DNA of 64,000 nucleotides from an uncultured Bdellovibrionales bacterium (GCA_964609855.1 CAZSTB010000004.1:3740-67739); one strand, 5' to 3'; positions 14,839-48,694 are shown, counted from the first letter of the stretch. Translations and numbers: made by a program. Notes: a model not told the origin generated them from the sequence alone.

Positions 14839-15636
14839 TTATTCAAGAATTTCTGCTACACGCCGGGCAAGGTCACTTGGAACAACATGCGTTTTTTCAT
14901 AAAAATCCGTTATTCCCAAATCCCTGACCGGCTGAATATCTTCTTCCACAACTGACGCCGACAGAACTATTATCGGGGTTTCTTTCGTTTTATCGTCCAG
15001 TCTTATGCGCCTGATAATTTCCTCTCCTGCCATGGCTGGCATCACCATATCAGTGATAATCAAATCGTAATGATTTTCCGCCGCCATCTTGCATCCCCAA
15101 ACACCATTTTTTGCATATTCAACTTCAAATCCATCATCTTCTAATTTCTTGCCAAACATTTCCAAGAAAATTTCCTCATCCTCAATAAACAAAATGCGTT
15201 TTTTATCTTTTTTATGGAGAAAATTAAATCCACCCAAACGTTGACTATTCTTCTTTTGCTCTTGATACATAGCCAGCAGCCTATTTATCTCGGTAACCAA
15301 TTCCGAGGGTGAAAACCTACTTTTTTCAATAAATTCATCTGCCCCATTCTCCCTTGTCTCTTTTTCATTTTCAGCCTTACTCAGATTGCTCAAAATCACA
15401 ACTTTCAAGTCGCTACTATAATTTCCGCTTTTTTTAAGCTCTTTCAAAACATCCATTCCACTCATTTCCGGCAAAACCATATCCAAAAGGATCAAGTCAA
15501 AATCCTCCTCACTGGCAACTTTAAGCACCTCACGACCATTCGTAACGTTAATCACCTCAAAACCTGCATTTTTAAACTTGTTCAGATAGATGTCTGCAAT
15601 CATTGGGTCGTCCTCAACAAGCATGATTTTCGCCAT
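14839..15636 (-). CDS. Orphan response regulator with two tandem receiver (REC) domains and no output domain
   Basis: Two CheY-like units (IMLVEDDP...LILLDMVLP; ILFIEDEE...LIITDMVMP), each with the phospho-acceptor Asp and a conserved Lys. Confidence 0.75.
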   Translation of the reverse strand: MAKIMLVEDDPMIADIYLNKFKNAGFEVINVTNGREVLKVASEEDFDLILLDMVLPEMSGMDVLKELKKSGNYSSDLKVVILSNLSKAENEKETRENGADEFIEKSRFSPSELVTEINRLLAMYQEQKKNSQRLGGFNFLHKKDKKRILFIEDEEIFLEMFGKKLEDDGFEVEYAKNGVWGCKMAAENHYDLIITDMVMPAMAGEEIIRRIRLDDKTKETPIIVLSASVVEEDIQPVRDLGITDFYEKTHVVPSDLARRVAEILE

Positions 15637-18350: not shown

Positions 18351-18363
18351 TGATTTTACATCG

Positions 18364-18423
18364 TGTCATTCCCGCAAAGCAGGAATCCAGGCCCTAGATT
18401 CTGAATCAAATTCAGAATGACAA
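18364..18423. repeat. GC-rich palindromic repeat, family A copy A1 (TGTCATTCCCG...GGAATCCAGGCCC...GAATGACA)
   Basis: 8-bp terminal inverted repeats TGTCATTC/GAATGACA; internal hairpin ATTCTGAAT-CAA-ATTCAGAAT; shares modules with copies at 37305, 39739, 41357. Confidence 0.7.
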
Positions 18424-18567
18424 AGAAATTTAATATATTTAAGGATAACCTTATCATAGCAAATTATCCCTTAAATGCAAGGAAATATATGAAAAAATCG
18501 TTCAATTAGTTCACGAAGTAATTACGTGCCTCTAGGGTCTTAGCAGCTTTCCCACCTTGTGTTGTTC

Positions 18568-18885
18568 TTAATTAATAATTTTCTTACTTACCGCTCCTTC
18601 GAATATTCTGAAAGCAAGTCGGTTTTCTTTTTTGTAAATAATCGGAGTACCAATGTGAGCCCCGCATTTTAAGCAAATTAGTTGCGGAATTTCCACTAAA
18701 GAAAAGTATTGGAGATTTTCATATTTCTCTGAACTGCAAATCCTATCCAGATATGTCCGCTTCAAAAGACCCGGACCATCTTTCTGGTAACTAAAAAGCC
18801 GCTCATCACATTTCGCGCAACAAACATCAAGCAATTTAGATTGCCCACCCCTCGCTTTGCGGTATCTATCCTGCTTCAGCTTCAT
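18568..18885 (-). CDS. Small zinc-ribbon protein (two CxxC pairs)
   Basis: CCAKC ... CLKCG motifs; 105 aa; directly upstream of the M16 peptidase. Confidence 0.4.
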   Translation of the reverse strand: MKLKQDRYRKARGGQSKLLDVCCAKCDERLFSYQKDGPGLLKRTYLDRICSSEKYENLQYFSLVEIPQLICLKCGAHIGTPIIYKKENRLAFRIFEGAVSKKIIN

Positions 18886-18888
18886 AAA

Positions 18889-20160
18889 TTATTCCAAACG
18901 AAAATCCAAATCTTTCTCGTCAATATTACCAATTGCGGAAATCGAAACATTATCTTCATTCAAGTATTTGCTTGCAACTCGTTGAATATCTTCGTTTTTT
19001 AAATTCGCAATAATTTTCGAATATTCATCTATATCCAACAACTTTTCCTTTCCAGATACAGTTGCTTGCCAGCCATACCACCACAAATACTCATATGGAT
19101 CAACAAATTTTATAGCCAGCGAAGACACAAAGGATCGTTTGTAAATGTCCAAACTGATCTCATTAAACATGTTTGATTTTATTTTTTTAATTTCTTCAAA
19201 AATTATTTCTATCGTCTTAGTAACATTTTTCTTATCACAAGAAAAGATGAATCTTAACACGCCAGTTTGCGAGAAATTCTCAGATTCTCCATCTACCCAA
19301 TATGTAAAATCTCGCTTTAATCGCAACTCTTCAATCAGTTTGGAAATCCACTTATTTGCTAAATAATCGCGAATAAAATCAATAGCGGCTATATCCTTTT
19401 GCTCATCGCAAATAGCAGTCGCTCTGAAAGCAACTGCTACAGTTACTTGATTAGCGTCAGTTTTTTCAATGGCTATTTTCTTTGGCTCAACGAAAGTTTC
19501 ACTATCTTCAATGATATTTACACCGCCATTGTTCATTTTTTCATTCAAATACTTTCCAATATTTTCAATACTTTCATCGCCCACTGTCACAAAAGTGCAA
19601 GAACTTTGAGAATAATGACTTTGGATGAACAACTTTAAATCGCTTTCACTGATTGAATTGATACTTTCATCATCGCCGAAAAAACTTCTGCCCATCGATG
19701 AATTCTTCCAAAGCGCCTGATTAGATAAGTTCCAGATGTACTCACGCGGATTAAGCTTATTTTCCCGCATCTCATTCAACACGATATCTTTTTCTTTTTC
19801 AAGATCCTGCTCGTCAAAAACATACCAGCAAAGACCATCGGTTAAAAATTCAAGAGCTTTAAATGTTTCGCTTTTCTCCTGAATATAATATTGATGAGAC
19901 GTTTCATAGCTCGTAAAAGCATTGCACTTGATGCCATGTGACTCAATCGCCTTGAGTCTTTCAATCTCATCAGAGTATTTTTTTGTTCTCTTAACTAAAA
20001 GATGTTCCAATAGGTGCGCTAGACCCTCTTTTCCCGCAGGATCAAATCTGGATCCAGCCCTGAACCACGCCGAAACAATCGAAATCGGTAAATTCTCAAC
20101 CCTCACATTTATAAGTGTTGCTCCGTTTGCAAGTATTATCTTTTCTATTTGATGTTTCAT
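18889..20160 (-). CDS. M16-family (pitrilysin/insulinase-like) zinc peptidase
   Basis: Inverted zinc-binding motif HLLEHLL (HxxEH) followed by a distal Glu. Confidence 0.8.
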   Translation of the reverse strand: MKHQIEKIILANGATLINVRVENLPISIVSAWFRAGSRFDPAGKEGLAHLLEHLLVKRTKKYSDEIERLKAIESHGIKCNAFTSYETSHQYYIQEKSETFKALEFLTDGLCWYVFDEQDLEKEKDIVLNEMRENKLNPREYIWNLSNQALWKNSSMGRSFFGDDESINSISESDLKLFIQSHYSQSSCTFVTVGDESIENIGKYLNEKMNNGGVNIIEDSETFVEPKKIAIEKTDANQVTVAVAFRATAICDEQKDIAAIDFIRDYLANKWISKLIEELRLKRDFTYWVDGESENFSQTGVLRFIFSCDKKNVTKTIEIIFEEIKKIKSNMFNEISLDIYKRSFVSSLAIKFVDPYEYLWWYGWQATVSGKEKLLDIDEYSKIIANLKNEDIQRVASKYLNEDNVSISAIGNIDEKDLDFRLE

Positions 20161-20192
20161 ATTGTTATAATACTACCATTTAATACAAAATT

Positions 20193-20222
20193 AAAGCCCT
20201 TTCCAAGTTCGGAAAGGGCTTT
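20193..20222. terminator. Perfect 12-bp stem hairpin AAAGCCCTTTCC-AAGTTC-GGAAAGGGCTTT, probably the relic terminator of a decayed histidine-kinase gene
   Basis: Seen directly; lies just 3' (minus-strand sense) of the HK-tail pseudogene fragment. Confidence 0.4.
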
Positions 20223-20245
20223 AATGATATTTCAATATTCAAAGT

Positions 20246-20456
20246 TACTTGAGCCTTTTCCTTCTCCATCTGATTCGATCCAACTTATCCGTGGTGCGCT
20301 TCTGCAATTACCTTTCCAACATAAAGTCCAAGTCCTGTGCCGCCAACGTGAAGACGTGAAACGTCCTTGCTCGCCTCGATTCGACAAGACGTATCATTGA
20401 GTCGAAGCGGGTCGACGCGAGGCAGGCCGCGTGAGAATTTTTTGAAAAGATATGAA
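20246..20456 (-). pseudogene. Fragment of a histidine-kinase 3' end (HATPase_c C-terminus), interrupted by a 62-bp GC-rich palindromic insertion at 20368-20429
   Basis: Nucleotide-level similarity to the 3' ends of the HK genes at 26545.. and 29601.. (...GCCAACGTGAAGACGTGAAACGTC...GAAAAGATATG...); the insertion replaces about 7 bp. Confidence 0.7.
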
Positions 20457-20490
20457 GCGTGATTATTATCAAAAGATATAGTAATTGATT

Positions 20491-21042
20491 TTATTCATAA
20501 GAGATGTTTCTTGTTTTTTTTAATATACTTGAAAAGAAAGCGTTATTTCCAAATATACGTAAAGCACATTCCTTAAAAATTTTGCCTTTGTATTTAAAAG
20601 AATTTATATAATTTCTAATCTCCAATCTCAATGCATCATCTCCATGCCTAAGCAATATACTTTCAGCTTCGCAGACCCGTACATTATGTTTGTATTTGCT
20701 GATCAAATCATTAGTGCGCCTTCCATGGTAGCTATTAGTAATAACAATGTTCGAATCGTTCAATGAAAAATTACTCACTATTTCCATAATTGCTGATATA
20801 TTCGACTCCGTGGTTGATGAACCGAGAATATGTGAAGGTAAATCTATAATTGAAAACCTCTCATAATATTGTTTCATATGCTCCGCCCCAGAAATATTTT
20901 TTTTAAATGACCCTCCAACAAAAAAAATATTTGAAACCTTGTAATTGCCAATATAAAGCAGAGCAGCTTTTATACGCAACTTTGCATCATAAGAAAGCTC
21001 TTTCATTGAACCATCGAAGTGATATAGCACGAAAATGTTCAT
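20491..21042 (-). CDS. DUF218 (YdcF/SanA/ElyC-family) protein
   Basis: ITNSYHGRRT matches the T-[SN]-x-[FY]-H-x-x-R signature of DUF218. Confidence 0.5.
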   Translation of the reverse strand: MNIFVLYHFDGSMKELSYDAKLRIKAALLYIGNYKVSNIFFVGGSFKKNISGAEHMKQYYERFSIIDLPSHILGSSTTESNISAIMEIVSNFSLNDSNIVITNSYHGRRTNDLISKYKHNVRVCEAESILLRHGDDALRLEIRNYINSFKYKGKIFKECALRIFGNNAFFSSILKKTRNISYE

Positions 21043-21115
21043 AAATTAAATACTTTAAATAAAAAACGTGGTACCAAACATATGGTACCACGACTTGCAG
21101 TGCAGAAACAGTGTG

Positions 21116-22000
21116 TCATTTCGCGTTTTCTCTGTACCACGATATTGTATGCGTCATTCCCTCCTCCAAAGCAACGCACGGCTTCCACAACGTCAGCGCA
21201 CGTAGCGGCTCTATATCAGCAACGATTCTAGTGTATTCATCCTCTCCCGGACGCATCGCAATGTGCTGTATTTCCGATGCGCTTTCAGTCAAAGATATGA
21301 TCATTTTAGCTAGATCATCAGTCACTGTTTCCACACCACTACCAATTTCAAAAGTTTTTCCTTCGCATTGCGAGAAGTTTTCCATAATAGCAATAATTGC
21401 GGAAATAGCATCGTACACATAGATTAAATCCATTGTTTGCATTCCCGATCCATAAACAACAACGGGATCACCTTTGATGGCCGATACGATCCACGTAGGA
21501 ACAGCCTTTTTGTAGCCACTTTCTTCAAACAAAGGCTGACGGCCAGCATACACATTGAACCATTTAGCAATGACCGCTTCAAGACCGAATTCTTTGCGGT
21601 ACATTTCCACAAAATTCTCCATAGCAATTTTAGTAATTGTATACGGATTTATCCAACAATTCGGTTTGGATATTGCAATCAACTTTGCATTGAATTCACT
21701 ACAAGCCTCCATCACATTAACAGAACCGCCAATATTAACCTCTACAGCGCGACTAACATTGAACACAAGCTCGTTAGTCCCAAGCAAACCAGCCAGATGA
21801 ATCACCATATGACTTCCCCTGACTACATTTCTAACATCGATCGGATTTCTGATGTCACCAGAGACAAAACGAGCATCAACAAATGAACCCCAGCGTGGCT
21901 CTACTTGATCAAAGATGATAACATCATGACCAAGTCCGACAAGTTTATCAACGAGAAAACTACCTACAAATCCGCTTCCACCAGTGATAACAACTTTCAT
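21116..22000 (-). CDS. NAD-dependent epimerase/dehydratase (extended SDR)
   Basis: N-terminal Rossmann motif VVITGGSGFVGSFLVDKL; YxxxK catalytic region (YTITK). Confidence 0.8.
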   Translation of the reverse strand: MKVVITGGSGFVGSFLVDKLVGLGHDVIIFDQVEPRWGSFVDARFVSGDIRNPIDVRNVVRGSHMVIHLAGLLGTNELVFNVSRAVEVNIGGSVNVMEACSEFNAKLIAISKPNCWINPYTITKIAMENFVEMYRKEFGLEAVIAKWFNVYAGRQPLFEESGYKKAVPTWIVSAIKGDPVVVYGSGMQTMDLIYVYDAISAIIAIMENFSQCEGKTFEIGSGVETVTDDLAKMIISLTESASEIQHIAMRPGEDEYTRIVADIEPLRALTLWKPCVALEEGMTHTISWYRENAK

Positions 22001-22130
22001 GACATCCTCCTTGGATAATACTAGTAAAGAGCAATAAATAAACTTCCATGAATGCTAATAATATCTAAGCACATTAGTTCTATTTTTGCAAACAAAAAAG
22101 AAATTTATTTACACTACGTGCTCCACAGGT

Positions 22131-22370
22131 ATCTCAATAATAAATCTGCTTCCTAATCCGTTCGCCGTCGGATTCAACCCAGATTTACCTCAGAGTGAAT
22201 TTATTCTGCTTCCGGGGCTTGGCCGTGATGCGCTTCAGCAATAGCCTTGCCAACATAGAGTCCAAGACCTGTGCCACCTACGTGAAGACGTGATACGTCC
22301 TTTCACGTGAAAACTTTTTGAAAAGATATGGAATTTCTTCTCTTGGAATGCCGGTTCTTGTGTCGGAAAC
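22131..22370 (-). pseudogene. Second histidine-kinase 3'-end fragment (about 75 C-terminal codons of an HATPase_c domain)
   Basis: Aligns to the 29615-29860 HK 3' end (ATCTCAATGATAAATCT..., TTGCCAACRTAGAG, CGTGAAGACGTGA, TTGAAAAGATATGGAATTTC) with an internal ~30-bp indel; homology stops abruptly at 22370. Confidence 0.7.
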
Positions 22371-22409
22371 GCACCTTAACTCCCTAGAAAGGTGGTGATT
22401 CGTGGGAGG
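22370..22409. repeat. ~38-bp direct-repeat motif, left copy (CGCACCTTAACTCCCTAGAAAGGTGGTGATTCGTGGGAGG)
   Basis: About 90% identical to 26001-26037 in the same orientation; degenerate third copy at 22591-22620. Confidence 0.7.
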
Positions 22410-22622
22410 AAATGAAGCTATTGCCATAATTTGCTTTATTTAAAGTAAAAATTTTATTCATTTACTCTCCAGAAATACTCCGTGATGAGTTAACTAACAC
22501 AATTTATTAACTTTTATACTTAGATAATTACCGTTTACATACAATATCTTAGCATATTAGTTAAAAAAAGCAGGCTCTTATGCATACTTATCCCTCAACT
22601 AGGAAGCGATTCGTGGGAGGAA

Positions 22623-23159
22623 TTAGAGCAAATTTAAATAATCCAACCCAAGATACCCAACTTCGACATCTGAGCTCTTTCCACTTCTAAGCAATTCTCT
22701 AAATTCTGAAATTGACATTAGCACAACCTCCGTGAATTCATTTTCCTCAAGTTTTTGTTCGGAAACTTTCTCACAATCAGTAACTACAACGCAATTTTTT
22801 TTCATCGTAGAATAACCATCGCCAATAATAGATGTTACAAATTCTGCGTTTCCCTTATACCCAGTCTCCTCCAAAAGCTCTCTTTCTGCCGCTTGCTTTG
22901 GAGTCTCGCCTTTGTCGACATAACCGCCAGGCAATTCGATAAGAATTTCTTTCGGTCCTGGTCTAAATTGCTTAACGAGAACGATTTGTTTATCTTTCGT
23001 TATCGCCAAAGTAGCCACAAAAACACTTTCTTTCTTTATATAGAAATCATTTACTTCCCCATTTGGCAATTTGAAGTCAACTTTTTCAATGCCTCTCCCA
23101 TATTTACTAAAAATTTCCTCTCGGGAAATTTCTTCCCATTCTTCTATTTCATTTAACAT
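22623..23159 (-). CDS. Nudix hydrolase (ADP-ribose pyrophosphatase-like)
   Basis: Nudix box GGYVDKGETPKQAAERELLEETGY. Confidence 0.8.
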   Translation of the reverse strand: MLNEIEEWEEISREEIFSKYGRGIEKVDFKLPNGEVNDFYIKKESVFVATLAITKDKQIVLVKQFRPGPKEILIELPGGYVDKGETPKQAAERELLEETGYKGNAEFVTSIIGDGYSTMKKNCVVVTDCEKVSEQKLEENEFTEVVLMSISEFRELLRSGKSSDVEVGYLGLDYLNLL

Positions 23160-23258
23160 ATTATATTTTTTAATCTAATAAAAACAAGGTGAATTAATTT
23201 ATAATCCACCTTGATGCTAACACAGTTCGCACTTTTAATCAACAAACGTTGATAGCTA

Positions 23259-24431
23259 TTAAAAGAAATTATCATTAGAAACACCCAAATTAAATGGTCT
23301 ATCAAGATATTTCTTTACAATCTTGTTGTGCTCCCAATTTCTGCAGAATAACGAATTGCAGCACTCACTCCTCATTTTGCGAAAATTATTGATTGCATTA
23401 CTATCGCAATTTGGCAAATCCGCAATTTGGCAAATCGATAATTCATGCAATCTGTATTCGGCTAAGGTTAAGCAGGGATACATATAGCCGTCTGGAGCTA
23501 TCAACTGATAAGCAAGACATACGGAACATTCATCTAGACTTTCAACAAAAACATTACTGGGATTAGTGATATTAATAAGCCTGTTTAAACCACCATTGAT
23601 TAATTGAGAAAACAGACCCATATTACTCTTTCTCCTAAGAAAATATTCGAGACCTTCGCACCCCCTGAATTCATCTTTCATGTTACCCAAAAGAACAATT
23701 AATTGCTCTTTATCAGGTAAAAAATTGATATTTTCCTCATGAAGCGCTTGTGTCAATTGCGTCGGGCGAGACATCAAGAAGGCAGGTTTGAATTGGATGT
23801 GCATCCTTTCAAGAGCTCTGTTATCATCCTTATATCTCAAATACACTTCTCTTATGAAAGGAATGATATCCGACATATTCTTTCTATGGAAAAGAAAGTG
23901 CACCCCAACATGAGGAATCTCTACACAATGCTTCAGGTAGAATTCGATATTACCTAAAACTTTCCAGTATAATTCAGCGTTCCTCCCAGAGTATTTTCCA
24001 TCCTCAATTGAATATACTGAAACCCTAACCCAATCAATGCATTTTCGCCATAAACCATCGGGAATTATTACCCCGTTAGTTATTAAGCCGATTTTAACAT
24101 TTGGGATTTTTGCGAGCTTTAGAACAGCATTATCGAATTTTGGATAAAGAGTAGGTTCGCCACCGCCAGCAATCGTTATCACTTTTGGCTTTATGAATCT
24201 AGCGATATTATCCAACAACTCAAAAGGGATTTCTTTGTCGCCTAATCCACGGAAATGACAGCCTGAACAATTTAAGCAACATTTATCAGTAAGTTGCAAC
24301 TCGATATGTCCAGATTGACATAGCAAACCTCTATTTGCATCTGGTGAATCCAAGGAGATTCTCTTTTTTCTAATTAATTCCAGATGATTTAAGATTCGAT
24401 TTTTATCAGTTGCAACATTCGCATAGACCAT
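23259..24431 (-). CDS. Radical SAM enzyme with a C-terminal Cys-rich SPASM/twitch-like domain
   Basis: CLNCSGC (CxxxCxxC) cluster, GGGEPTLYP SAM-binding motif, C-terminal CSVC...C...C...CC...C auxiliary-cluster cysteines. Confidence 0.75.
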   Translation of the reverse strand: MVYANVATDKNRILNHLELIRKKRISLDSPDANRGLLCQSGHIELQLTDKCCLNCSGCHFRGLGDKEIPFELLDNIARFIKPKVITIAGGGEPTLYPKFDNAVLKLAKIPNVKIGLITNGVIIPDGLWRKCIDWVRVSVYSIEDGKYSGRNAELYWKVLGNIEFYLKHCVEIPHVGVHFLFHRKNMSDIIPFIREVYLRYKDDNRALERMHIQFKPAFLMSRPTQLTQALHEENINFLPDKEQLIVLLGNMKDEFRGCEGLEYFLRRKSNMGLFSQLINGGLNRLINITNPSNVFVESLDECSVCLAYQLIAPDGYMYPCLTLAEYRLHELSICQIADLPNCDSNAINNFRKMRSECCNSLFCRNWEHNKIVKKYLDRPFNLGVSNDNFF

Positions 24432-24462
24432 TGTAATCTCCTTGTACCCATATTATTCAGGG

Positions 24463-25662
24463 TCAGATAAAGTTAATAGACATATTGTCTTCGCATAAAA
24501 CCTTCTCGTAAATTTCATTATGAGGAGAATATGTGCACCTTGGACAGCTACTTAAATCAAGTTTATCGTACATCTTCCAATGGTTGTCATTCCCCCATAC
24601 ATTAAGAATATCCCCAATATTTCTTAGATTATGGGAAAGTTCTAACATCGAATCACCCCTCCTGTCACAGCATTGACAAAGCGTGAAAGAATCAGGATAG
24701 TCCCCAGAGTCAGGTGGTGAAAAAACAGTCGTCATAAACAATGCATGACACTTAACGAAATTGTTCTTTTTATCGAAGTCAGGCGTGAACTTATGAGTAA
24801 CTCCGTATATGGAAAAATTTTCATCTTCCATTTCCCTCGCCACTCTCAATTTATCATAAAACATCGAAATCGTTTTATCATCAAAGGAGATGTTCCCTTT
24901 CGAATACCATGGTTTGCCAACAGGTCTGATATGAATACTTTTACATCCAATTGCTTTAGCCAATTTCGTAGCCACATCAATCTCATGGACATTTCTTTCA
25001 TGAACAAGAAATTTATAGGTCACGCCAAACGACAATGGTTTTTGAGCTAAATTTGTAGAATATTTATGAGAATACTCTACTAGCTTTTGCATGTTTTTAA
25101 TGACTCTATCAAATTCAGATAAAGACACTCCTTTCAAGCCAGCAAACGTATTTGCCGCACCACTATCGACTGAAACAGAAACCCAATGACATCTGGACAA
25201 GGATTCGATAAAATCGCCAATATGGCTTCCATTGGTTACAACACCAACATCAATATCTCTATCAACAAGATTATCTATGAAGAACCCTGTTTCACTGTTC
25301 AGAAGAGGCTCGCCTCCTCCAGCTATACAAACAGCTTTCACTCCATATTTATTTCCTTTGCATTTCCAATCGCCCAATGCTTTAGCAATTTCTTCCAGAG
25401 CAACTCTGGAAAGCCGTTGCCTTGATTTTTTATTAATAATAGCTTTGGAATTACACCAAATACAATCATAGTTACATTCATTGGTTGGGTCGACAGTCAC
25501 TAAAACTGGCGGGGGGATTATTCCACCTCTTTCGATAGAACGCCAACGTTCTAAATGAGCTATTACTTTCAAGCTGTTAAAAGGATTAAAAAACCTACCA
25601 AAGCTCCATTCTCCCTCTGTTTTATTGGCTAAGTCTTGACTTTCTTTTTCTGAATGTTTCAT
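24463..25662 (-). CDS. Radical SAM enzyme with a C-terminal Cys-rich SPASM/twitch-like domain (paralogous to the upstream neighbour)
   Basis: CNYDCIWC (CxxxCxxC), GGGEPLLN motif, C-terminal CQCC...CPRC...C cysteines; RBS GGAGA 8 nt upstream. Confidence 0.75.
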   Translation of the reverse strand: MKHSEKESQDLANKTEGEWSFGRFFNPFNSLKVIAHLERWRSIERGGIIPPPVLVTVDPTNECNYDCIWCNSKAIINKKSRQRLSRVALEEIAKALGDWKCKGNKYGVKAVCIAGGGEPLLNSETGFFIDNLVDRDIDVGVVTNGSHIGDFIESLSRCHWVSVSVDSGAANTFAGLKGVSLSEFDRVIKNMQKLVEYSHKYSTNLAQKPLSFGVTYKFLVHERNVHEIDVATKLAKAIGCKSIHIRPVGKPWYSKGNISFDDKTISMFYDKLRVAREMEDENFSIYGVTHKFTPDFDKKNNFVKCHALFMTTVFSPPDSGDYPDSFTLCQCCDRRGDSMLELSHNLRNIGDILNVWGNDNHWKMYDKLDLSSCPRCTYSPHNEIYEKVLCEDNMSINFI

Positions 25663-25819
25663 TTTTCACCTCACTTTGATTTTTATGAGAGACTCATTTT
25701 TGAACTGCTATTCATTTTTTAAGGGACATCAAAGAATAACACAATAAATCCGAAAGTCAATGTTACGCTTTTTCGCCAAAACAAAAAACACCTCGCGAAA
25801 AAGTGTTTTCATGCCTACA

Positions 25820-25866
25820 GCCCGCCTCGTGTCGACAAGCGAATGTCTTCGCGAGTCGAGGCGGGC
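25820..25866. repeat. GC-rich palindromic element (GCCCGCCTCG...CGAGGCGGGC), related to the insertion inside the HK fragment at 20368-20429
   Basis: 9-bp perfect terminal stems; shared CGCCTCG-TTCGACAAG / GAGTCGA-GGCGGG halves with 20368-20429. Confidence 0.6.
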
Positions 25867-26000
25867 AATACAAAAAGCAAGCTAATCGTAAGCTATTGTG
25901 ACTAGTCCTAATGGTATGTTTATAAGAAGTTTTTTGGTTTTACTCTGATAAATCAGAGTAAACGACCCCTAGAATTTGGTCAATGTCCGAAGACATCAAC

Positions 26001-26037
26001 CGCACCTTAACACCCTAGAAGAGGTGACTCGTGGGAG
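26001..26037. repeat. ~38-bp direct-repeat motif, right copy (CGCACCTTAACACCCTAGAAGAGGTGACTCGTGGGAG)
   Basis: Same-orientation near-copy of 22370-22409; the pair brackets the Nudix + 2 rSAM cassette. Confidence 0.7.
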
Positions 26038-26080
26038 ATTGGGAAATAACTAAATCAATGCACAAACACCATCCAATTCT

Positions 26081-26536
26081 TTAAAAAGAAGGTGCATTGT
26101 AACCATATAATTCAATATATTTTAGAAAATTTGACCTGCTTGCTAGTGATAAATCTTCAGGATTAATTTCAGACAATTCAATCCACCTAACCTCATCACA
26201 TTTACCAGGCTCCATTGTTTTTGCTTCGCCAGAAATGTGTTTTGCAATGTACGTTGTTGTCACCCAGTGTTGTCCCTCTTCTTCTATTATATGATCAACA
26301 ATTTCAAGAAGTTTTAGGATTTCTATTTCGATATCATTTTCTTCTCTTACTTCCCTTTTTATAGCATCTTCCAATTTCTCACCAAAATCAACTCCACCAC
26401 CAGGAAACTCCCAAAGCCCTCTTTCATTTCTAGCCAAGTTTCCTCTTTTTGATACTATAACTTTTCTTTCATCATTGAAGACTATCGCTCCAACGCCCAC
26501 GCCTATATAGTCTTTGCCTTTTTTCATATTTTTCAT
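26081..26536 (-). CDS. Nudix hydrolase (MutT-like)
   Basis: Nudix box GGGVDFGEKLEDAIKREVREENDIEI. Confidence 0.8.
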   Translation of the reverse strand: MKNMKKGKDYIGVGVGAIVFNDERKVIVSKRGNLARNERGLWEFPGGGVDFGEKLEDAIKREVREENDIEIEILKLLEIVDHIIEEEGQHWVTTTYIAKHISGEAKTMEPGKCDEVRWIELSEINPEDLSLASRSNFLKYIELYGYNAPSF

Positions 26537-26544
26537 AAATTTGT

Positions 26545-28128
26545 TTAATCCACATGCTCAACTGGAATTTCAATAATAAATCTTGAGCCTTTTCCTTCTC
26601 CGTCTGATTCAACCCACATTTTACCATGATTAGCTTCAACTACTTTCTTGCCGAAATATAATCCGAGTCCGGTTCCGGTGGATGTTAATCTTTTCTGATT
26701 ACTTCCACGTGAGAATTTACCAAATATATTTCCCAGATCTTCTTTCGGAATACCAATTCCAGTGTCAGAAACAGTTATGCGCACCGCCTTAGCTTGCAGC
26801 TTAGCGCTGACAATGACACTCCCCGCTTTCGTGTATTTTAGAGAGTTATCAACAAGATTAGAAACGGCTTCAAAAATCTTACCTCGGTCTATCGAGACTA
26901 GTGGCAATGATTTTTTAGGAAGCTCAAGTGATAACTTTAAGTCCTTCTCCTTAGCTGAAAGTTCGAATGAATCAACAATTTCCTTTAAGATATTTTCAAT
27001 TTTCTCATTTTTAAATTCGAAAACCATTCTTCCAGATTCAATTCTCGAAATATTCAAAAGATCTTCAACCAAATGAAGCAGTCGATTGTTAGCATTGCTG
27101 ATTCTATCCAAAGGATGCTTTAATTCCTCAGGAATTACTCCATAATTTCCCTCAGAGATGAGTGATAAAAACCCTTTCGAGGTAGTTAACGGTGTCCTTA
27201 ATTGATGAGATGCGATTGAGATAAATTCCGATTTCGCTTCATCAAGTTTTCGAAGTTGCGCATTGGCAATTTCAAGTTCTTCTTTTCTCAATACTTCTTC
27301 CCTAACAGATTTTATCAAAAGGTAACCGAATATAATCGAAAATACAAGCATCACGATTGCCGCGGAAAACTCATAAAATCCCTTTGTTATGAATATTTCT
27401 ATAGTTAAGAATATCCAAAGTGAAAAGGTAAATAATTCTGTTGTAATTATTTTTACATTTAAAAAATGGTATTTCAATATCGCCAAGAAAATAATAAATC
27501 CAAATACTGAGGTATACACTGGAGCTAAAATTGTAAGGTAAAAAATTCCCAACAATGGTAAAATCAAGTTTGTTCCAATAGCTAACAATAAAAAAATGGA
27601 AATTCCCAACAGAAGAAGCTGCATGGAATTTTTTATTTCAGAATTTTTTTCAAAATAATACTTAGTAGAGATACGTATAGCAGCATACGCAAGAGTTCCT
27701 AGCATATATATACTATAAACCAACATACCCCAACCGAATTCCAAATCAACAATTCCATCATTCGGTATAATTTTTTTTATCAACACTGGACTTAAGCTAA
27801 TAGCTAAAACAAAGATAAATAGAATTGCGATAATAGATTTCCACACGCTCTGCATTCGCTGATCTTCAGGGAATGTTTTTGCAAACATCGCTAATCCAGT
27901 GCCAAATATCGCAGTAAAGAAAAAAATTAATTTATTAATCCAAGTAAGTGCATTTATTGAATATTCAAGATTAGAGTAATAATTAGCGATTATCCAACCC
28001 GAGAGACCAATAATTGACCAAAAGAGATATCTTCCCGATAGTGATTTTCTTAAATGAATAGCAATTAAAACTAGTAATAAAAAATTAGCAAAAACACTTA
28101 CTAATAAAGTAATGAACTGTCCATTCAT
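26545..28128 (-). CDS. Sensor histidine kinase with N-terminal 7-8 TM sensor domain (HisKA + HATPase_c)
   Basis: H-box SHQLRTPLTTSKGF; coiled-coil linker; C-terminal G1/G2 boxes (DTGIGIP, GTGLGL). Confidence 0.85.
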   Translation of the reverse strand: MNGQFITLLVSVFANFLLLVLIAIHLRKSLSGRYLFWSIIGLSGWIIANYYSNLEYSINALTWINKLIFFFTAIFGTGLAMFAKTFPEDQRMQSVWKSIIAILFIFVLAISLSPVLIKKIIPNDGIVDLEFGWGMLVYSIYMLGTLAYAAIRISTKYYFEKNSEIKNSMQLLLLGISIFLLLAIGTNLILPLLGIFYLTILAPVYTSVFGFIIFLAILKYHFLNVKIITTELFTFSLWIFLTIEIFITKGFYEFSAAIVMLVFSIIFGYLLIKSVREEVLRKEELEIANAQLRKLDEAKSEFISIASHQLRTPLTTSKGFLSLISEGNYGVIPEELKHPLDRISNANNRLLHLVEDLLNISRIESGRMVFEFKNEKIENILKEIVDSFELSAKEKDLKLSLELPKKSLPLVSIDRGKIFEAVSNLVDNSLKYTKAGSVIVSAKLQAKAVRITVSDTGIGIPKEDLGNIFGKFSRGSNQKRLTSTGTGLGLYFGKKVVEANHGKMWVESDGEGKGSRFIIEIPVEHVD

Positions 28129-28213
28129 AATTAAATAATCATTATTAACTTATATCCTCATCTAATTATATTTTAAAGCGCACGTCATGGCAATGCATGA
28201 CGTGCGCTTATCA

Positions 28214-28828
28214 TCAGGAAATCAACATCTCATAAAAAGCATTCTGCTTCTTCTCGAAAGATGCCATCTGTTCATCCATATTGAGAACACAAAGTACCGT
28301 TGATGAACCCATGTAAAACATGGGGTTCCCAATGCGGTGAATCCGCCAACCGACCATATCCATAACCCGCAGAGCTCTTGCATCAATGGCAATCAGCCAG
28401 TGTTTAATATGATTGTTGAGACTGTAGAGAAGGCTTGTTTTATAAATTCCCCAGGAAACTTTCTTGTCATTATTTCCTTTTCCCACAGCCAAAGCGCCAA
28501 CAACAACAGACTTTCCGGACTCAAATTTACTTATATGTTCTAACGCGCACTCCTTTAATTGACCATCCCACAATGTAAGGAGCTCATTCGCGCAAACGAT
28601 TGGCGAAAACTTCAACGTCCCTAACACATTATCATCACAATATGCGACAACGTACTCGTCTTCCTTGTGATTGTCAGGAATGATTCGATCAGGATATGCA
28701 TTCTCAATATATCCCAAATCTAAATAAACATCGTGCCTCAATTTTTGGGCCATCTCTCCTAATGTACCAGCTTGAGTGACAAAATATCTTACACCTTGAA
28801 AACTACTCATCTCTTGAGCCGTGTTCAT
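28214..28828 (-). CDS. GNAT-fold N-acyltransferase of the LuxI / FeeM N-acyl amino acid synthase-like family
   Basis: RHDVYLDLGY (cf. LuxI RxxVFxxxLGW), EDEY acidic cluster, YCDDNVLGTLKF (cf. LuxI YKDNNLIGSARL); overlaps the thiF-like gene by 4 nt. Confidence 0.5.
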   Translation of the reverse strand: MNTAQEMSSFQGVRYFVTQAGTLGEMAQKLRHDVYLDLGYIENAYPDRIIPDNHKEDEYVVAYCDDNVLGTLKFSPIVCANELLTLWDGQLKECALEHISKFESGKSVVVGALAVGKGNNDKKVSWGIYKTSLLYSLNNHIKHWLIAIDARALRVMDMVGWRIHRIGNPMFYMGSSTVLCVLNMDEQMASFEKKQNAFYEMLIS

Positions 28829-29592
28829 AATCCCCCCTTTTTGATTGTAAAGTCATAAGTATCAAAGAACAATATATTTGGAACAGTTACGGGTTTTTCA
28901 TTTCTGATCACAAATGAAATAACCTGACTGGAAACCATTGCTGCAACCAATGCAACCGAGGAGGAAATGCTTGGCATTGACATTTCGCCACCCAAAACTT
29001 TCTCGAGCATCTCATTTGAGATATATGCAGGAACCTCTGGCATATATTTCATTGCATCGATACTACTATCATTTTCATTATATTCAAAATATTCTTCAAA
29101 TGTCATTCCACTAGGATCAAAACAAAGAGTGCTTGAACCCCATCCAATATTAGCACCCATAAAAACAAATTTATTCTGGATTCTTGCTTCTTTCGCCAAC
29201 ATTACAGATATTTCAGGCACTGAATATTCAATTTCATCAATAATTATGTCAGAGTAATTCACAAACTCTTTTACATTCTCTTCGGTGATGCCCTGATTAA
29301 AAACCACCACCTTAATGTCTGGATTAATTTTTCGCAGCTCCTGAGCAACAACTTCTGCTTTATTCTTACCCAATGTTTCAGAATTTGAACCAAACTGCCT
29401 ATTTATATTTTGTACTTCAAAAAACTCAGGGTCTGCTAAGATTATCGTTCCAACTCCAAAACGAGCAAGTCTTTCAGCCAGAAGACCACCATCCCCACCC
29501 GCACCAGCAATTGATATTGAAAGTTTTGATATTTTTTCTTGCTGCCATTCAGTAACGAAACCTATATTTCTTTCAAATAGTTTATTTTTCAT
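28825..29592 (-). CDS. ThiF/MoeB/HesA-family E1-like adenylyltransferase (no CxxC zinc motif)
   Basis: Nucleotide-binding motif IAGAGGDGGLLAERLARFGVGTIILADPEFFEVQNINRQ. Confidence 0.75.
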   Translation of the reverse strand: MKNKLFERNIGFVTEWQQEKISKLSISIAGAGGDGGLLAERLARFGVGTIILADPEFFEVQNINRQFGSNSETLGKNKAEVVAQELRKINPDIKVVVFNQGITEENVKEFVNYSDIIIDEIEYSVPEISVMLAKEARIQNKFVFMGANIGWGSSTLCFDPSGMTFEEYFEYNENDSSIDAMKYMPEVPAYISNEMLEKVLGGEMSMPSISSSVALVAAMVSSQVISFVIRNEKPVTVPNILFFDTYDFTIKKGGL

Positions 29593-29600
29593 AAATTTGT

Positions 29601-31325
29601 TTATGCCACATGCTCCACTGGAATCTCAATGATAAATCTTGAACCGAGGTCGGCGCCATCAGATTCAACCCAGACTTGGCCGTGGTGGGCTTCGGCGATT
29701 GCTTTGCCAACGTAGAGCCCGAGGCCGGTTCCGCCAACGTGAAGACGTGAAACGTCTTTTCCACGTGAGAATTTCTTGAAAAGATATGGAATTTCCTCCC
29801 TTGGGATTCCTATTCCAGTATCAGAAACTGTGATGCGAACCATCTGACCAAATTCAGATTTCTTCTCCGGAATAACGAAACCATTTTCATCGATCAAAAC
29901 TCCAGTTTCTTTAAGCTCAGCCTTTACGGTCACACCGCCCTTTTCCGTATATTTCAACGCATTATCAATGAAATTAGAAACCAGCTCTCTAATCTTAGTA
30001 TAATCCATGATAATTTCAGGCAGTGGGGTTTCGGGAAGCTTTAAGTCAAGATAAAACTTTTTCGTTTTTGCTATCAAAATGAAGTTATCATTTAATTCCT
30101 TGATGAGTTTTTCAACATTGGATTTTTCAAAAGCAAATTGCATACGTCCCGATTCAATTCGAGAGACATTGAGCAAATCTTCAATTAAACTCACTAAACG
30201 CTCAGAAGATGAATAAACTTTTTCCATTGCCCCCTTAACGCTTTCGGTTAATTCTCCATATGAACCCTCGAGCAAAAGTGAAGCAAATCCCTTGATTGCC
30301 GTAATCGGAGTTCTGAGTTGATGAGAAGCAATTGAGATAAATTCAGTTTTCGCATTATCCAACTTCCTAAGCTGATCATTCGCCGTAGCTAATTTATCAG
30401 CCATTGCCTGAAGTTGCTCCTTGCGTTCAACTTCTTGCTTGACAGACCTAATGAGCATATATCCAAAGCCAAGGGATAACGCTAGCGTCACTCCAGTTAA
30501 AACCATCGCCGTAGTGTTTTGAACGAAGAAGAATTGTGAACCGACAAGCAAAATCATGGAGACTACCAATGCTTGTGCACCAATTAGCTTTATTTCAAAT
30601 GTTTTATATTTAACAATCATATAAGCAAGGAAAGCCACAAAAATAGGCATTCCAAAAAGCTTATACTGCTCAAACTTCCAATCAAGCTCCATTGTAATAA
30701 GAAAGTTTCCAATTGAAAAAGTTATCAACAAAATCACAATTCCCAAGGTAAAAAGCAAAATTTGCTTCTTATGTGCTACTTCAGCCTTTTTGTATCCCCT
30801 TATGGTAACTCCCGCTATCCATAAAATCAAAAGAATTTCCACAATATAAATATATATCCAAAGTGGCCCCTCAAAAGCCGCCCTATCGCAATTCGTTAAA
30901 TCATAGCCCAATAAATTATAGCGAGTATGCGTTAAAAAAATAACCGGCAAAAAAACCAAACTTACCAATATTTTCTTAAGAAAAGAAATGTCCGTGCCGT
31001 AAACAAATAAATAAGTTAAGTACAGAGCTGCTGCATACATAAGAAGCTCTAATGGAGCCATTGCTGACCAAAAAAACATGATGTATTGATCTTTTTCGCT
31101 TGCCCATAATATCAAATCAAAATAAACCCACAATGAAAACACAACTGTTAAAAAAAACAAAATTTTGTTTATCAACTCTTTTCTTCCTTTAAAAAAAACG
31201 AAGAAGCCAATAATCAAAGATAGAATAAGAGGTACCAAATGAGAATAGTAAATCAAGGGCTCATACACATTTGCTGAAAAAATAAGGAATTTCGCAGCAT
31301 CCCAATTACAAGATAGTGGATCCAT
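29601..31325 (-). CDS. Sensor histidine kinase with N-terminal multi-TM sensor domain (paralogue of 26545..28128)
   Basis: H-box SHQLRTPITAIKGF; HATPase_c G-boxes; same architecture and linker (QLRKLDxAKxEFISIASHQLRTP) as the other HK. Confidence 0.85.
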   Translation of the reverse strand: MDPLSCNWDAAKFLIFSANVYEPLIYYSHLVPLILSLIIGFFVFFKGRKELINKILFFLTVVFSLWVYFDLILWASEKDQYIMFFWSAMAPLELLMYAAALYLTYLFVYGTDISFLKKILVSLVFLPVIFLTHTRYNLLGYDLTNCDRAAFEGPLWIYIYIVEILLILWIAGVTIRGYKKAEVAHKKQILLFTLGIVILLITFSIGNFLITMELDWKFEQYKLFGMPIFVAFLAYMIVKYKTFEIKLIGAQALVVSMILLVGSQFFFVQNTTAMVLTGVTLALSLGFGYMLIRSVKQEVERKEQLQAMADKLATANDQLRKLDNAKTEFISIASHQLRTPITAIKGFASLLLEGSYGELTESVKGAMEKVYSSSERLVSLIEDLLNVSRIESGRMQFAFEKSNVEKLIKELNDNFILIAKTKKFYLDLKLPETPLPEIIMDYTKIRELVSNFIDNALKYTEKGGVTVKAELKETGVLIDENGFVIPEKKSEFGQMVRITVSDTGIGIPREEIPYLFKKFSRGKDVSRLHVGGTGLGLYVGKAIAEAHHGQVWVESDGADLGSRFIIEIPVEHVA

Positions 31326-31343: not shown

Positions 31344-31841
31344 TTAGCGTTGCGTTTTAAGGCCCAGCAATTCAGCATTTTGTTCCAAATAAATCTTCTT
31401 AAAATACGTAGGGAAGACAGGGAAATATTTTCTAAAAAATAATGGCGGCAAATGCCTCGTACCTCGAATTATCCCCCTGCAATCACGAGCACCACATCCA
31501 CATCTCATGGTCCACGATGTATCTTCAGAAATTGAATAATCAAAAGTTATTTCTTCGTTTTTTTTAATGTTTCGCAATGCCACAAACGTAACTCTACCCC
31601 TTACGCTCGTATTTGGATCACAGGAGTGATTTATATAAACATAGGGTTTAATCGGGTCAATCCAGAGATCCTTATCTATCCCTACAATATTCGGCATTGA
31701 CAATAGATTTTTCCTATTGCTATTATTCATCTTCAAAATTCGACCCTTCATGATGAACACTACCTCCCCTTTTTTAATATCCCTATTTGAAAACAAACCA
31801 GTACCTGCAATTTCAGATTTACCTACATAAATTTTTGACAT
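31344..31841 (-). CDS. SET-domain protein (putative protein lysine methyltransferase) with post-SET Cys cluster
   Basis: GTGLFS, NHSCDPN, FDYS motifs; C-terminal CGCGARDC. Confidence 0.75.
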   Translation of the reverse strand: MSKIYVGKSEIAGTGLFSNRDIKKGEVVFIMKGRILKMNNSNRKNLLSMPNIVGIDKDLWIDPIKPYVYINHSCDPNTSVRGRVTFVALRNIKKNEEITFDYSISEDTSWTMRCGCGARDCRGIIRGTRHLPPLFFRKYFPVFPTYFKKIYLEQNAELLGLKTQR

Positions 31842-33659: not shown

Positions 33660-34440
33660 TTCTTTCCCCTACATGGTCCGGAGTTCTTCCCCGATTTATT
33701 CCTCCAACAAATACTTCTGCAAGTTCTTTTTTTCTTTCATGTGAAATGCATTACTCTCAACAAATCTCCTGTAATCATCAGCGTCATCAAATTGACTGAG
33801 AATGATATTTCCATCATATCTAGAAGCACCGCTTTTTGGGACGTAGCCGGCAAAACTCGAATAGGGCCAGCTGACGGAGTTCTTCTCCGATTGCATGTGA
33901 ATGAAATAGTTCAAATTTACGTATGCTGATAAATATAAAAGATAAGCATTCGAATCTATATGAATTGCCTTGAATTTCCCTTGGAATAAAGCTCCGGATC
34001 GTTTTTGTTTGATGTTGAAATAATTAGTGTAGCCCGTGCCGATCTTTTGCATGAATGACACAACTCCGCCATCTTGCTTCTGCTTTATGATTAAATGAAA
34101 GTGGTTGGGATTCAAGCAATAACAAACGATTTCAACCAACTCATTTGCAAATAAGGGTGCGGAGTCGAACTCCGATTTCGGAGTTCGACTCCGCAACAAT
34201 CTTTCTTCTCTTAACATGCCAGAGTTAAAATCAGACATGGCACCGAGAAATCTGTCGTAATCACTGGCATCCGAAAAAATCATGCGCTTATCCACGCCGC
34301 GATTATACACATGATAATATTCATCAGTAATAAATTGTATTTTTCTTGATGGCATAGAATTTATTTCCACGGAGTTCCACGGAGTTCTTCTCCGATTAAT
34401 TTGAAGCATTTTAAAAGAGCATTTCTGCTCTTTTATCTTT
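33660..34440. mobile_element. Candidate minimal IS200-like element: the transposase gene plus flanking/overlapping GGAGTTCTTC(Y)CCGATT repeats and a terminal hairpin
   Basis: Motif copies at 33681-33697, 33887-33902, 34381-34397; tandem CACGGAGTTC x2 at 34367-34386; hairpin AAAAGAGCA-TTTC-TGCTCTTTT at 34412-34433; element boundaries are inferred. Confidence 0.35.
33696..34409 (-). CDS. HuH Y1 tyrosine transposase, IS200/RAYT (REP-associated tyrosine transposase) family
   Basis: YHVYNRGVDKRMIFSDASDYDRFLG (RAYT N-terminal block), HuH motif NHFHLII, C-terminal YLLYLSAYVNLN (cf. YLxxLxRYIHxNP with catalytic Tyr). Confidence 0.7.
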   Translation of the reverse strand: MLQINRRRTPWNSVEINSMPSRKIQFITDEYYHVYNRGVDKRMIFSDASDYDRFLGAMSDFNSGMLREERLLRSRTPKSEFDSAPLFANELVEIVCYCLNPNHFHLIIKQKQDGGVVSFMQKIGTGYTNYFNIKQKRSGALFQGKFKAIHIDSNAYLLYLSAYVNLNYFIHMQSEKNSVSWPYSSFAGYVPKSGASRYDGNIILSQFDDADDYRRFVESNAFHMKEKKNLQKYLLEE

Positions 34441-34442: not shown

Positions 34443-35024
34443 TTATTCCAGTGGTAAATTTTCATTCTCAACCTCCTCTACTTTGGTTGGATTTTCTTCC
34501 AAGCCCTCTTCACATTCCGCATCACCTTCCTCGCAGGCAACTTCCGCACTTTCTTCTTGCAGTGCAGAGCATTCTTCATCCCCTGCCTCGACAGCAGCCG
34601 GGTCACATTCGGCGACTTCCTCTTCCTCTTCGACGGGATTATCAATAATGTATTGTTCAGGATCATTACAAATTTGTCCCTCTTCGGCGGTTTCCTCGCT
34701 GCACAAAATCATTTCACATTCTGCCTCACCCTCAGGGCAAGTCAAGGCTTCGCAATTTTCATCCGCAGGATCGCAAAGTGGAATATTGGCTGCATTTCTT
34801 TTTATAAGCTTGTAATACCAAATGTCTTCTTCCGGATCACCAGTGCACTCTTCCTCTTCCGGATCGCATTCATAAATAAAGCATGTTTCCAAGGTTGGAT
34901 CGCAGTCTGCCTCAGCTTCAATGATGTAGTCCTTTTTTAACATGATGCGCCAAAAGGTCACACCGACTGAACCGGCAATCATCAATGCGAAAACCCACAA
35001 CAACACTTTTGATTTTTTATCCAT
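34443..35024 (-). CDS. Membrane-anchored, highly acidic Cys-rich protein (CDP/CxE repeats)
   Basis: N-terminal TM (VLLWVFALMIAGSVGV), then about 20 Cys spaced in CDPxxE/CExxxC repeats among Glu/Asp runs. Confidence 0.45.
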   Translation of the reverse strand: MDKKSKVLLWVFALMIAGSVGVTFWRIMLKKDYIIEAEADCDPTLETCFIYECDPEEEECTGDPEEDIWYYKLIKRNAANIPLCDPADENCEALTCPEGEAECEMILCSEETAEEGQICNDPEQYIIDNPVEEEEEVAECDPAAVEAGDEECSALQEESAEVACEEGDAECEEGLEENPTKVEEVENENLPLE

Positions 35025-48561: not shown

Positions 48562-48646
48562 AATTTTAAAAGGCTATAAAAAACTGAGCATTTTTAATCT
48601 AAATGCCATTGAATAATTAACTGGATACTATACATCAATATTAATT

Positions 48647-48671
48647 AAAAAGCAACCCCTCCCGGAGTTGC
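48647..48671 (-). terminator. Hairpin GCAACCCCTCCCGGAGTTGC followed by a U-run (minus strand) 3' of the sigma-factor gene
   Basis: Seen directly. Confidence 0.5.
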
Positions 48672-48694
48672 TGACAAATTAAACTAAACACCGC

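Follow-up and report, generated by a model that had tools for sequence, protein, structure and literature searches.

Do two membrane-bound sensor kinases perceive the product of the enzymes encoded between them? This question is raised by a minus-strand gene cluster in a 64,000-nt stretch of DNA deposited from an uncultured Bdellovibrionales bacterium (GCA_964609855.1 CAZSTB010000004.1:3740-67739), referred to here as the window. In this cluster a ThiF/E1-like adenylating enzyme and a GNAT-family acyltransferase lie between two histidine kinases (HK), HK1 and HK2, and an earlier note on this DNA had interpreted the arrangement as a possible autoinducer-type circuit. The linkage between synthase and kinase is conserved across distant lineages and therefore gives real support for a signalling connection. 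We tentatively favour, at a little short of an even chance, the reading that the cluster is a candidate-phyla-radiation variant of the N-acyl-amino-acid synthase plus ThiF-cyclase pathway, lacking the desaturase and tied to sensor kinases that may sense the product. The candidate-phyla-radiation placement would follow from the nearest relatives, which are Moranbacteria and Minisyncoccales metagenome-assembled genomes (MAGs), and from synteny with them. The features of the cluster and its putative output are as follows.

29601..31325, minus strand: HK1 histidine kinase, 574 aa, HisKA and HATPase_c domains, seven predicted transmembrane segments
28825..29592, minus strand: ThiF/E1-like adenylating enzyme, predicted ATP-dependent cyclase acting on an N-acyl amino acid, 255 aa
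28214..28828, minus strand: LuxI/FeeM-fold GNAT, predicted N-acyl amino acid synthase, 204 aa
28176..28209, minus strand: perfect 14-bp inverted repeat (hairpin) in the GNAT-HK2 gap, from folding and shuffles
26545..28128, minus strand: HK2 histidine kinase, 527 aa, HisKA and HATPase_c domains, seven predicted transmembrane segments
14839..15636, minus strand: REC-REC response regulator without an output domain, two receiver domains, tentative phosphoacceptor of HK1/HK2
31344-31841, minus strand: SET-domain protein, 165 aa, Pfam SET 61.6 bits

Conserved linkage of ThiF, synthase and kinase

Five minus-strand open reading frames (ORFs) were recovered in the order SET-HK-thiF-GNAT-HK, with exactly the coordinates and the 4-nt overlap of the ThiF stop and the GNAT start (28825-28828) that the earlier note had given. 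The remaining gaps are 18 nt (SET-HK1), 8 nt (HK1-ThiF) and 85 nt (GNAT-HK2); genes are tightly packed in the window, and the HK1, ThiF, GNAT and HK2 ORFs are all intact. The observation is thereby confirmed, and the interpretation built on it is partly supported by what follows.

Related loci were collected by looking up exact proteins and by scanning genome and metagenome collections with an alignment of ThiF, and the ORFs of the 55 loci obtained (L numbers) were classified with profiles and seeds. For this genome the search covered the 64,000-nt window, a part of the genome, with Pfam scans of nearly all ORFs of at least 110 aa, and for the relatives it covered ~8 kb flanks. In the close ThiF clade (44-73% identity), a GNAT directly follows ThiF in every locus with continuing sequence. 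Two mutually exclusive continuations were then found, and no locus with downstream sequence had neither. The first (type A, 17 distinct loci named Chitinophagales, Taibaiella, Parafilimonas or "Bacteroidetes") is ThiF-synthase-GNAT2-flavin oxidase, the oxidase being ~367 aa and Acg/TyzC-like. The second (type B, 11 distinct loci) is ThiF-GNAT-histidine kinase, the kinase carrying an HK2-type N-terminal membrane domain; its members are the window, Moranbacteria and Minisyncoccales MAGs, and low-GC contigs. The full HK-ThiF-GNAT-HK order also occurs in L001, whose GNAT is just 40% identical to that of the window. Since this order recurs in L001 and ThiF-GNAT-HK in 11 loci, the arrangement is not a matter of chance.

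The linkage extends beyond this clade. In two contigs from a Gram-negative organism (L041 and L043; dnaA-dnaN-gyrBA, fabZ, lpxB), ThiF is accompanied by a TIGR03694-like synthase, a HisKA_7TM kinase and, in convergent orientation, a receiver protein, and overall ThiF-synthase-kinase was found in 13 distinct loci versus 17 with GNAT2 and oxidase. A kinase also lies immediately 3' of ThiF, often overlapping it, in five of the six loci with a distant ThiF (30-42% identity): Autoind_synth-ThiF-GAF kinase in L050, FeeM-ThiF-7TM kinase in L054, unknown gene(s)-ThiF-7TM kinase in L052 and L053, and ThiF-PAS kinase-regulator in L049, with FeeM-ThiF-124 aa in L055. In a neighbour-joining tree of ThiF, computed with no bootstrap, the kinase-linked forms are basal and the oxidase-linked Chitinophagales forms make up one nested clade, a topology that suggests a direction for the exchange of kinase and oxidase. 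We could not find a description of the conserved synthase-ThiF-HisKA_7TM kinase linkage in the literature.

It is the sensor domain, and not the kinase core alone, that is conserved beside the ThiF-synthase pair. The N-terminal domain of HK2 by itself detected the kinase directly 3' of the synthase in L001, L005, L007, L013, L020, L023, L025, L031, L044 and L046 (49-316 bits) and, weakly, the kinases of L041 and L043. When the HK2 sensor domain was used in a word-indexed search, only three weak matches came back.

The type A loci form a four-gene set of their own, ThiF-FeeM-like-GNAT2-Acg/TyzC-like oxidase (L010 8001-11081, Taibaiella; L012, L016-L019, L022, L024, L027-L029, L032-L035, L037-L039). 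This set resembles a split gene cluster of the oxazolone type that includes an additional acetyltransferase. The Chitinophagales ThiF is 50-55% identical to that of the window, a hint of exchange that would have linked Bacteroidota with candidate-phyla-radiation bacteria. The Chitinophagales oxidase had no match in any window ORF or kinase-linked locus.

Predicted chemistry of the ThiF-synthase pair

The 204-aa protein belongs to the LuxI/FeeM branch of GNATs by both hidden Markov model (HMM) and fold. It scored just above the Pfam thresholds, with 29.7 bits for FeeM (PF21926; threshold 27) and 25.7 bits for Autoind_synth (PF00765; threshold 24). An AlphaFold2 (AF2) model built on 37 relatives had a mean predicted local distance difference test (pLDDT) of 94.8, and its best Foldseek matches were the N-acyl-homoserine lactone (AHL) synthases TofI, LasI, BjaI, MesI and RpaI together with FeeM (TM-score 0.57-0.70), ordinary acetyltransferases ranking lower. 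These results bear out the LuxI/FeeM-like assignment of the earlier note, as opposed to an unrelated GNAT. The family has few members: among 1.84 billion representatives, a profile search found 392 matches at E <= 1e-3 and only 24 at E <= 1e-30. One remote relative, P0185, is a FeeM-ThiF fusion. In other remote relatives (P0119, P0152, P0196, P0203, P0121) the FeeM-like domain is fused to an S-adenosylmethionine (SAM)-dependent methyltransferase, at either end, or to a PlsC-type acyltransferase. FeeM and the PEP-CTERM/exosortase N-acyl amino acid synthases share with the window protein the fold and a family-level HMM signal (PF21926, TIGR03694), the L041 synthase reaching 92 bits with TIGR03694 and all scores staying under its cutoff of 112. 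In contrast to those systems, genes for an acyl carrier protein, an acyl-CoA ligase or an exosortase are absent nearby in the window.

A genuine LuxI-type AHL synthase, paired with LuxN-like membrane kinases and with an unrelated ThiF, would agree with the Autoind_synth match over its Pfam threshold, with the AHL synthases as best structural matches and with the name N-acyl-L-homoserine lactone synthetase that JGI gives to a homologue. We consider this very unlikely. The NCBIfam AHL-synthase models reach 23-27 bits against cutoffs of 250-292, the FeeM score exceeds the Autoind_synth score, and FeeM-ThiF fusions exist. The Glu at position 109 is missing, a residue that would correspond to LasI E101 by the motif alignment and that probably matters for catalysis, in view of that alignment and of LuxI-family mutagenesis. 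Furthermore, the invariant partner adenylates carboxylates, and a lactone has no free carboxylate. No autoinducer-binding or LuxR-type protein was found among the window ORFs scanned with Pfam.

The partner enzyme is a ThiF-family protein (PF00899, 124 bits), with the domain spanning residues 7-250 of 255. Its top NCBIfam match was PRK08223 (174 bits, cutoff 266), followed by the N-terminal, ThiF half of PRK14851 (134 bits, cutoff 1170), and the Rv1355c/TrzS family model gave 55 bits. PRK14851 is a model of a ThiF-flavin-oxidase fusion, because the flavin oxidase of the Chitinophagales sister clusters matches its positions 333-613; the same oxidase also matches positions 371-655 of the Rv1355c (TrzS) family. 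The top scores to PRK08223 and to the ThiF half of PRK14851 place the window ThiF nearest to the OxzAB/TyzABC/TrzAS systems, a placement made through family models, with every score under its curated cutoff. As the earlier note had observed, ThiF has a GxGxxG motif, present once (GAGGDG, residue 30), and no CxxC; its sole Cys is C157. The adenylation residues do not vary within the family, and the residues invariant over 30 relatives include D34, R65, K78 and D119.

The AF2 model of ThiF (pLDDT 91.9) was nearest by TM-score to the solved structure 9egb, AclA (0.81/0.83), followed by E. coli ThiF, PaaA, MccB and MoeB. AclA of Tenacibaculum discolor (PDB 9EGB/9EGC/9EGD) is likewise a stand-alone ThiF-type protein, of ~265 aa, which was crystallised with substrate and matches the window family over its full length in a profile comparison (E 1e-26). 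It differs in being 22% identical and in having Ile where the window family has the invariant C157. A literature search found no paper on the AclA reaction, and AclA gives no functional inference.

The fold similarity to MccB, PaaA, ThiF and MoeB, together with weak CBASS (cyclic-oligonucleotide-based antiphage signalling system) E1-E2 matches, could suggest that the enzyme adenylates the C terminus of a peptide or protein, as in the maturation of microcin C and other ribosomally synthesised, post-translationally modified peptides (RiPPs), in ThiS/MoaD activation or in a Cap2-like defence E1. We regard this as highly improbable. The ThiF of the window has 255 aa and no N-terminal peptide clamp or RiPP recognition element (RRE), in contrast to MccB and PaaA, whose structures extend 70-100 residues beyond the aligned core, and it lacks CxxC. 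The gaps between the genes are too short for a precursor ORF, and a 51-aa ORF in L001 is not conserved elsewhere. The microcin-C-type logic raised in the earlier note accordingly fails on the missing clamp extension and precursor ORF. A housekeeping ThiF/MoeB identity was rejected as well, in line with that note: the ThiF equivalog models gave 89 bits (cutoff 159) and 86 bits (cutoff 275), the MoeB equivalog 62 bits (cutoff 266), and no ThiF, MoeB or TcdA equivalog exceeded 89 bits, each staying far under its NCBIfam cutoff; CxxC is absent, and no credible GG-ended small ORF or ThiS/MoaD-like ORF was found within the 64-kb window. A CBASS/Cap2-type defence E1 was rejected since the PADLOC matches cover the Rossmann core alone and no E2 or JAB partner is present, and action of ThiF on a kinase C terminus was discarded because those tails show no conservation. 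In a Minisyncoccales contig (L013, 4860-5693), a second, divergent gene of the ThiF family (278 aa, Pfam 108 bits) lies ~2.3 kb 5' of the ThiF-synthase pair.

Characterised systems provide a chemical precedent for the pair. In the tyz cluster of M. tuberculosis, the FeeM/BjaI-like acyltransferase TyzA N-acylates Tyr or Phe from acyl-coenzyme A (acyl-CoA), the ThiF homologue TyzB cyclises the N-acyl product with ATP, and the nitroreductase-superfamily flavin oxidase TyzC desaturates the ring to give an acyl-oxazolone (PMC10404671). OxzA/OxzB of Pseudoalteromonas rubra work likewise (bioRxiv 10.1101/2020.06.11.147165), as do TrzA/TrzS of M. tuberculosis, where TrzS is Rv1355c, cyclisation precedes desaturation and the saturated ring builds up when O2 is limited (PMC12856293). 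The ring is opened by acid and by methanol (PMC12856293). The same three genes are implicated in the synthesis of N-acyl dehydrotyrosines in Planctomycetes and other producers (PMC12479983), and these NasY, ThiF and nitroreductase clusters are grouped with the oxazolone systems as the closest known relatives of the pair.

By analogy, the GNAT would move an acyl chain from acyl-CoA or acyl carrier protein onto the amino group of an amino acid. The translationally coupled ThiF would then adenylate the free alpha-carboxylate of the N-acyl amino acid with ATP, and attack of the amide oxygen on the adenylate would give a 2-alkyl-5(4H)-oxazolone. Because no nitroreductase-type oxidase is present, the ring would stay saturated, as in the labile intermediate that TrzS accumulates without O2. 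We infer the GNAT and ThiF steps from homology and from this characterised precedent. The earlier note had suggested acyl transfer onto an E1-adenylated substrate, which reverses the order in OxzAB, TyzABC and TrzAS, where the N-acyl amino acid is made first and the ThiF enzyme then adenylates the carboxylate and cyclises (PMC10404671, PMC12856293).

The window shares with the oxazolone systems an operon-like arrangement in which a LuxI/FeeM-fold synthase adjoins a ThiF closest to the PRK08223/PRK14851 lineage, and the Chitinophagales sister clusters share the flavin oxidase as well. It differs in its lack of a nitroreductase or flavin oxidase, seen across the window and the flanks of every candidate-phyla-radiation relative, in its gene order (ThiF then synthase, with a seven-transmembrane kinase in place of tailoring genes), in its shorter synthase (204 aa versus 322 aa for TyzA) without the conserved Glu, and in a predicted product that is at most a saturated oxazolone. 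The lack of an O2-dependent desaturase predicts a chemically distinct product with a saturated and more reactive ring.

Sensor kinases, their candidate output and the case against product sensing

The earlier note had described the kinases as paralogues sharing a receptor-like N terminus of 7-8 transmembrane segments and an identical linker and H-box. Paralogy is supported by 45% identity over the C-terminal ~400 residues (E 3e-104), by a common H-box string, EFISIASHQLRTP, and by seven transmembrane segments in each kinase from hydropathy; the H-box of HK1 is intact (SHQLRTP at residue 334). The linkers proved similar and not identical, and the N-terminal membrane domains of HK1 and HK2 had no similarity detectable by BLAST or phmmer. 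HisKA_7TM (PF16927) gave 24.8 bits on each window kinase versus a threshold of 28.6, and kinases in the same position in L013 (41.3), L025 (49.8) and L041 (52.6) exceeded the threshold. The sensors of these three align with HK2 along the whole sensor, and intramembrane motifs (W-x3-NY-x-SN, FGWG, TNLxLP and AIxK..FLxIK) are common to HK2 and the downstream sensors. HK1 and its L001 orthologue lack some of these motifs, NY-x-SN and TNLxLP being absent from HK1. From these alignments the HK1 sensor is probably a divergent variant of the HK2 type. An HK1-type upstream kinase was found only in the window and in L001 (230 bits with the HK1 N-terminal domain); of the earlier picture of a synthase between two receptors, it is therefore the HK2-type sensor that is consistently linked.

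A PrsK/PEP-CTERM kinase identity was tried and rejected, the match being confined to the catalytic core; the kinases are not PrsK equivalogs. In L013 (9526-10557) and L025 (1677-2729), the ORF right after the synthase has only 344-351 aa and comprises the seven-transmembrane sensor and the beginning of HisKA, lacking the ATPase domain. Either the kinase has been truncated or has decayed, or the assembly contains a frameshift. Further downstream, L013 has a second kinase, which is complete, and a receiver gene.

No response regulator adjoins the window kinases, as previously noted, and a candidate was found at a distance. The REC-REC protein at 14839-15636 is the orthologue of an L001 regulator (335 bits), and the L001 copy lies three genes after the second kinase in the order HK-ThiF-GNAT-HK-HisRS-LytB-regulator-AsxRS. 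The same HisRS-LytB-regulator-AsxRS block is present in the window at 18350-13405, ~8.4 kb from HK2. This synteny tentatively points to the REC-REC protein as the phosphoacceptor of HK1 and HK2. Receiver-only proteins also adjoin the kinase in L013, L046, L041, L043, L050 and L053, and a DNA-binding regulator is adjacent in no locus.

On the favoured reading, the HK2-type seven-transmembrane kinase, here together with its paralogue HK1, would detect, within the membrane, the lipid or the N-acyl amino acid from which it is made, and would phosphorylate a receiver-only regulator, possibly the REC-REC protein, giving an autoinducer-like or feedback circuit. We infer product sensing from the conserved gene linkage; of the autoinducer-type circuit that had been proposed, the tie between synthase and kinase in distant lineages stands and the sensing step stays conjectural. 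Vibrio LuxM/LuxN and CqsA/CqsS have the gene for a lipophilic-signal synthase beside that for a transmembrane-bundle kinase without a large extracytoplasmic domain, LuxN and CqsS being hybrid kinases with a receiver domain. The circuit logic is that of the earlier note, as a functional analogy alone. In contrast to the Vibrio systems, HK1 and HK2 have no receiver domain, and the ThiF step changes the chemistry.

Several observations weigh against this reading. Both Pfam matches of the GNAT are barely over threshold, and the window ThiF is under the NCBIfam cutoffs for PRK08223 and PRK14851. At position 109 the GNAT has Val in place of the Glu of 32 of 37 relatives, and at position 73 it has Lys in place of the Arg of 34 of 37. 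Nitroreductase is absent from the window ORFs scanned with Pfam, in a search limited to the 64 kb and the ~8 kb flanks of relatives. Cytoplasmic PAS and GAF sensors occur in L049 and L050, and L049 has no recognisable synthase beside ThiF, so that not every case fits a single "membrane lipid receptor" model. Finally, a strong hairpin (28176..28209; dG -27.7 kcal/mol, z -4.35, 0 of 200 shuffles folding as well) and an overlapping promoter-like site (28193..28165; TTGCCA-17-TATAAT) part the synthase from HK2. The hairpin could be a terminator or attenuator that separates synthase from kinase expression. A search of the intergenic regions for known RNAs and riboswitches gave nothing over noise.

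The substitutions in the GNAT raise the possibility that the synthase is catalytically impaired here (E109V, R73K) and that the cluster is decaying or repurposed, for example with the GNAT as a ligand-binding partner of the kinases. The closest homologue, P0002, likewise lacks the Glu and has Ile there, so that GNAT activity in this genome is not assured; distant family members carry E-I-S-R (an E-x-S-R strand motif), of which the window protein lacks the acidic residue. Among the orthologues that retain Glu109 is that of L007 (synthase and ThiF at 8001-9402). The truncated fragments after the synthase in L013 and L025 show that parts of the module can decay. In contrast, all four ORFs of the cluster are intact and closely spaced, confidence in the AF2 model is high, and the other family-invariant residues are retained (G70, D149, G174, S175, H32, D33 and Y35). 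A general base is not required by every GNAT. We consider an impaired synthase improbable.

On the main rival reading, the kinases would act upstream as regulators responding to an unrelated envelope or host cue. Through a receiver protein they would control synthesis of an N-acyl amino acid or oxazolone whose role is that of a membrane lipid, an antimicrobial or a host-directed effector. Conserved adjacency suits regulation as well as sensing, the PAS and GAF sensors of L049 and L050 fit such a role, and the hairpin and promoter-like site suggest separate expression of synthase and HK2. N-acyl amino acids are moreover known as membrane constituents and antibiotics (PMC10404671). Against this, the same sensor domain travels with the pair across lineages in which the synthases are only ~35-40% identical. 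The sister clade swaps the kinase for tailoring enzymes, suggesting a tie to the chemistry that is tighter than generic regulation, and adjacent DNA-binding regulators are lacking throughout. We judge this regulatory role to be unlikely, though a serious contender.

Returning to product sensing, a broader form of that reading is that synthase, ThiF, HisKA_7TM kinase and receiver-only regulator make up an undescribed and widespread cell-cell or self-signalling system, in which the signal would be a lipid derived from an N-acyl amino acid, possibly a saturated oxazolone that is short-lived, and HisKA_7TM would be its receptor. We hold this broader form to be doubtful. If true, it would give the first biological role and receptor for bacterial oxazolone and N-acyl-amino-acid metabolites, the first ligand for HisKA_7TM, and an autoinducer-type circuit in ultra-small candidate-phyla-radiation bacteria. 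To our knowledge, these lipids, recently found in Proteobacteria, Mycobacterium tuberculosis and Planctomycetes, have no known receptor. The authors of the pathway studies state that the biological role of oxazolone lipids is unknown. A signalling role has been suggested, de Rond et al. describing the compounds as labile in water "like many signaling molecules" (bioRxiv 10.1101/2020.06.11.147165), and HisKA_7TM appears in domain censuses without an assigned ligand (PMC6944256). The conserved linkage joins these two questions, the role of the lipid and the ligand of HisKA_7TM. Two paralogous putative receptors around a two-gene synthase in small, regulator-poor genomes suggest that the signal is important for lifestyle.

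Surroundings of the cluster

The SET-domain gene upstream of HK1 was rejected as a member of the module and is probably not part of it: its position is not conserved in L001, where purD lies upstream. On the other side, a block of ~8.4 kb (18351-26544) parts the kinase cluster from the HisRS-LytB-regulator block that adjoins it in L001. This block contains an M16 peptidase, DUF218, an NAD epimerase, two NUDIX genes and two paralogous radical-SAM genes (23259-24431 and 24463-25662), the latter with weak family matches only (tungsten-cofactor maturase, viperin-like).

Upstream, a 237-aa protein (33696-34409) has a weak IS200-like Y1 transposase match (27 bits), and a Y1_Tnp fragment also lies 3' of the kinase in L008 and L009. 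The next protein (34443-35024, 193 aa) has an N-terminal transmembrane anchor followed by a very acidic, Cys-rich stretch with repeated C-x-x-x-E/D, and no Pfam match. A second signalling cluster (47008-50249) comprises a REC-HisKA-HATPase hybrid kinase without a transmembrane sensor (47008-48561), an ECF-like sigma factor and a divergently oriented OmpR-type response regulator (49536-50249). Nearly all long ORFs of the window (1-64000) lie on the minus strand, and every 2-kb bin has a negative GC skew, which places the whole window on one replichore. ParA/ParB are encoded at 52029-53893.

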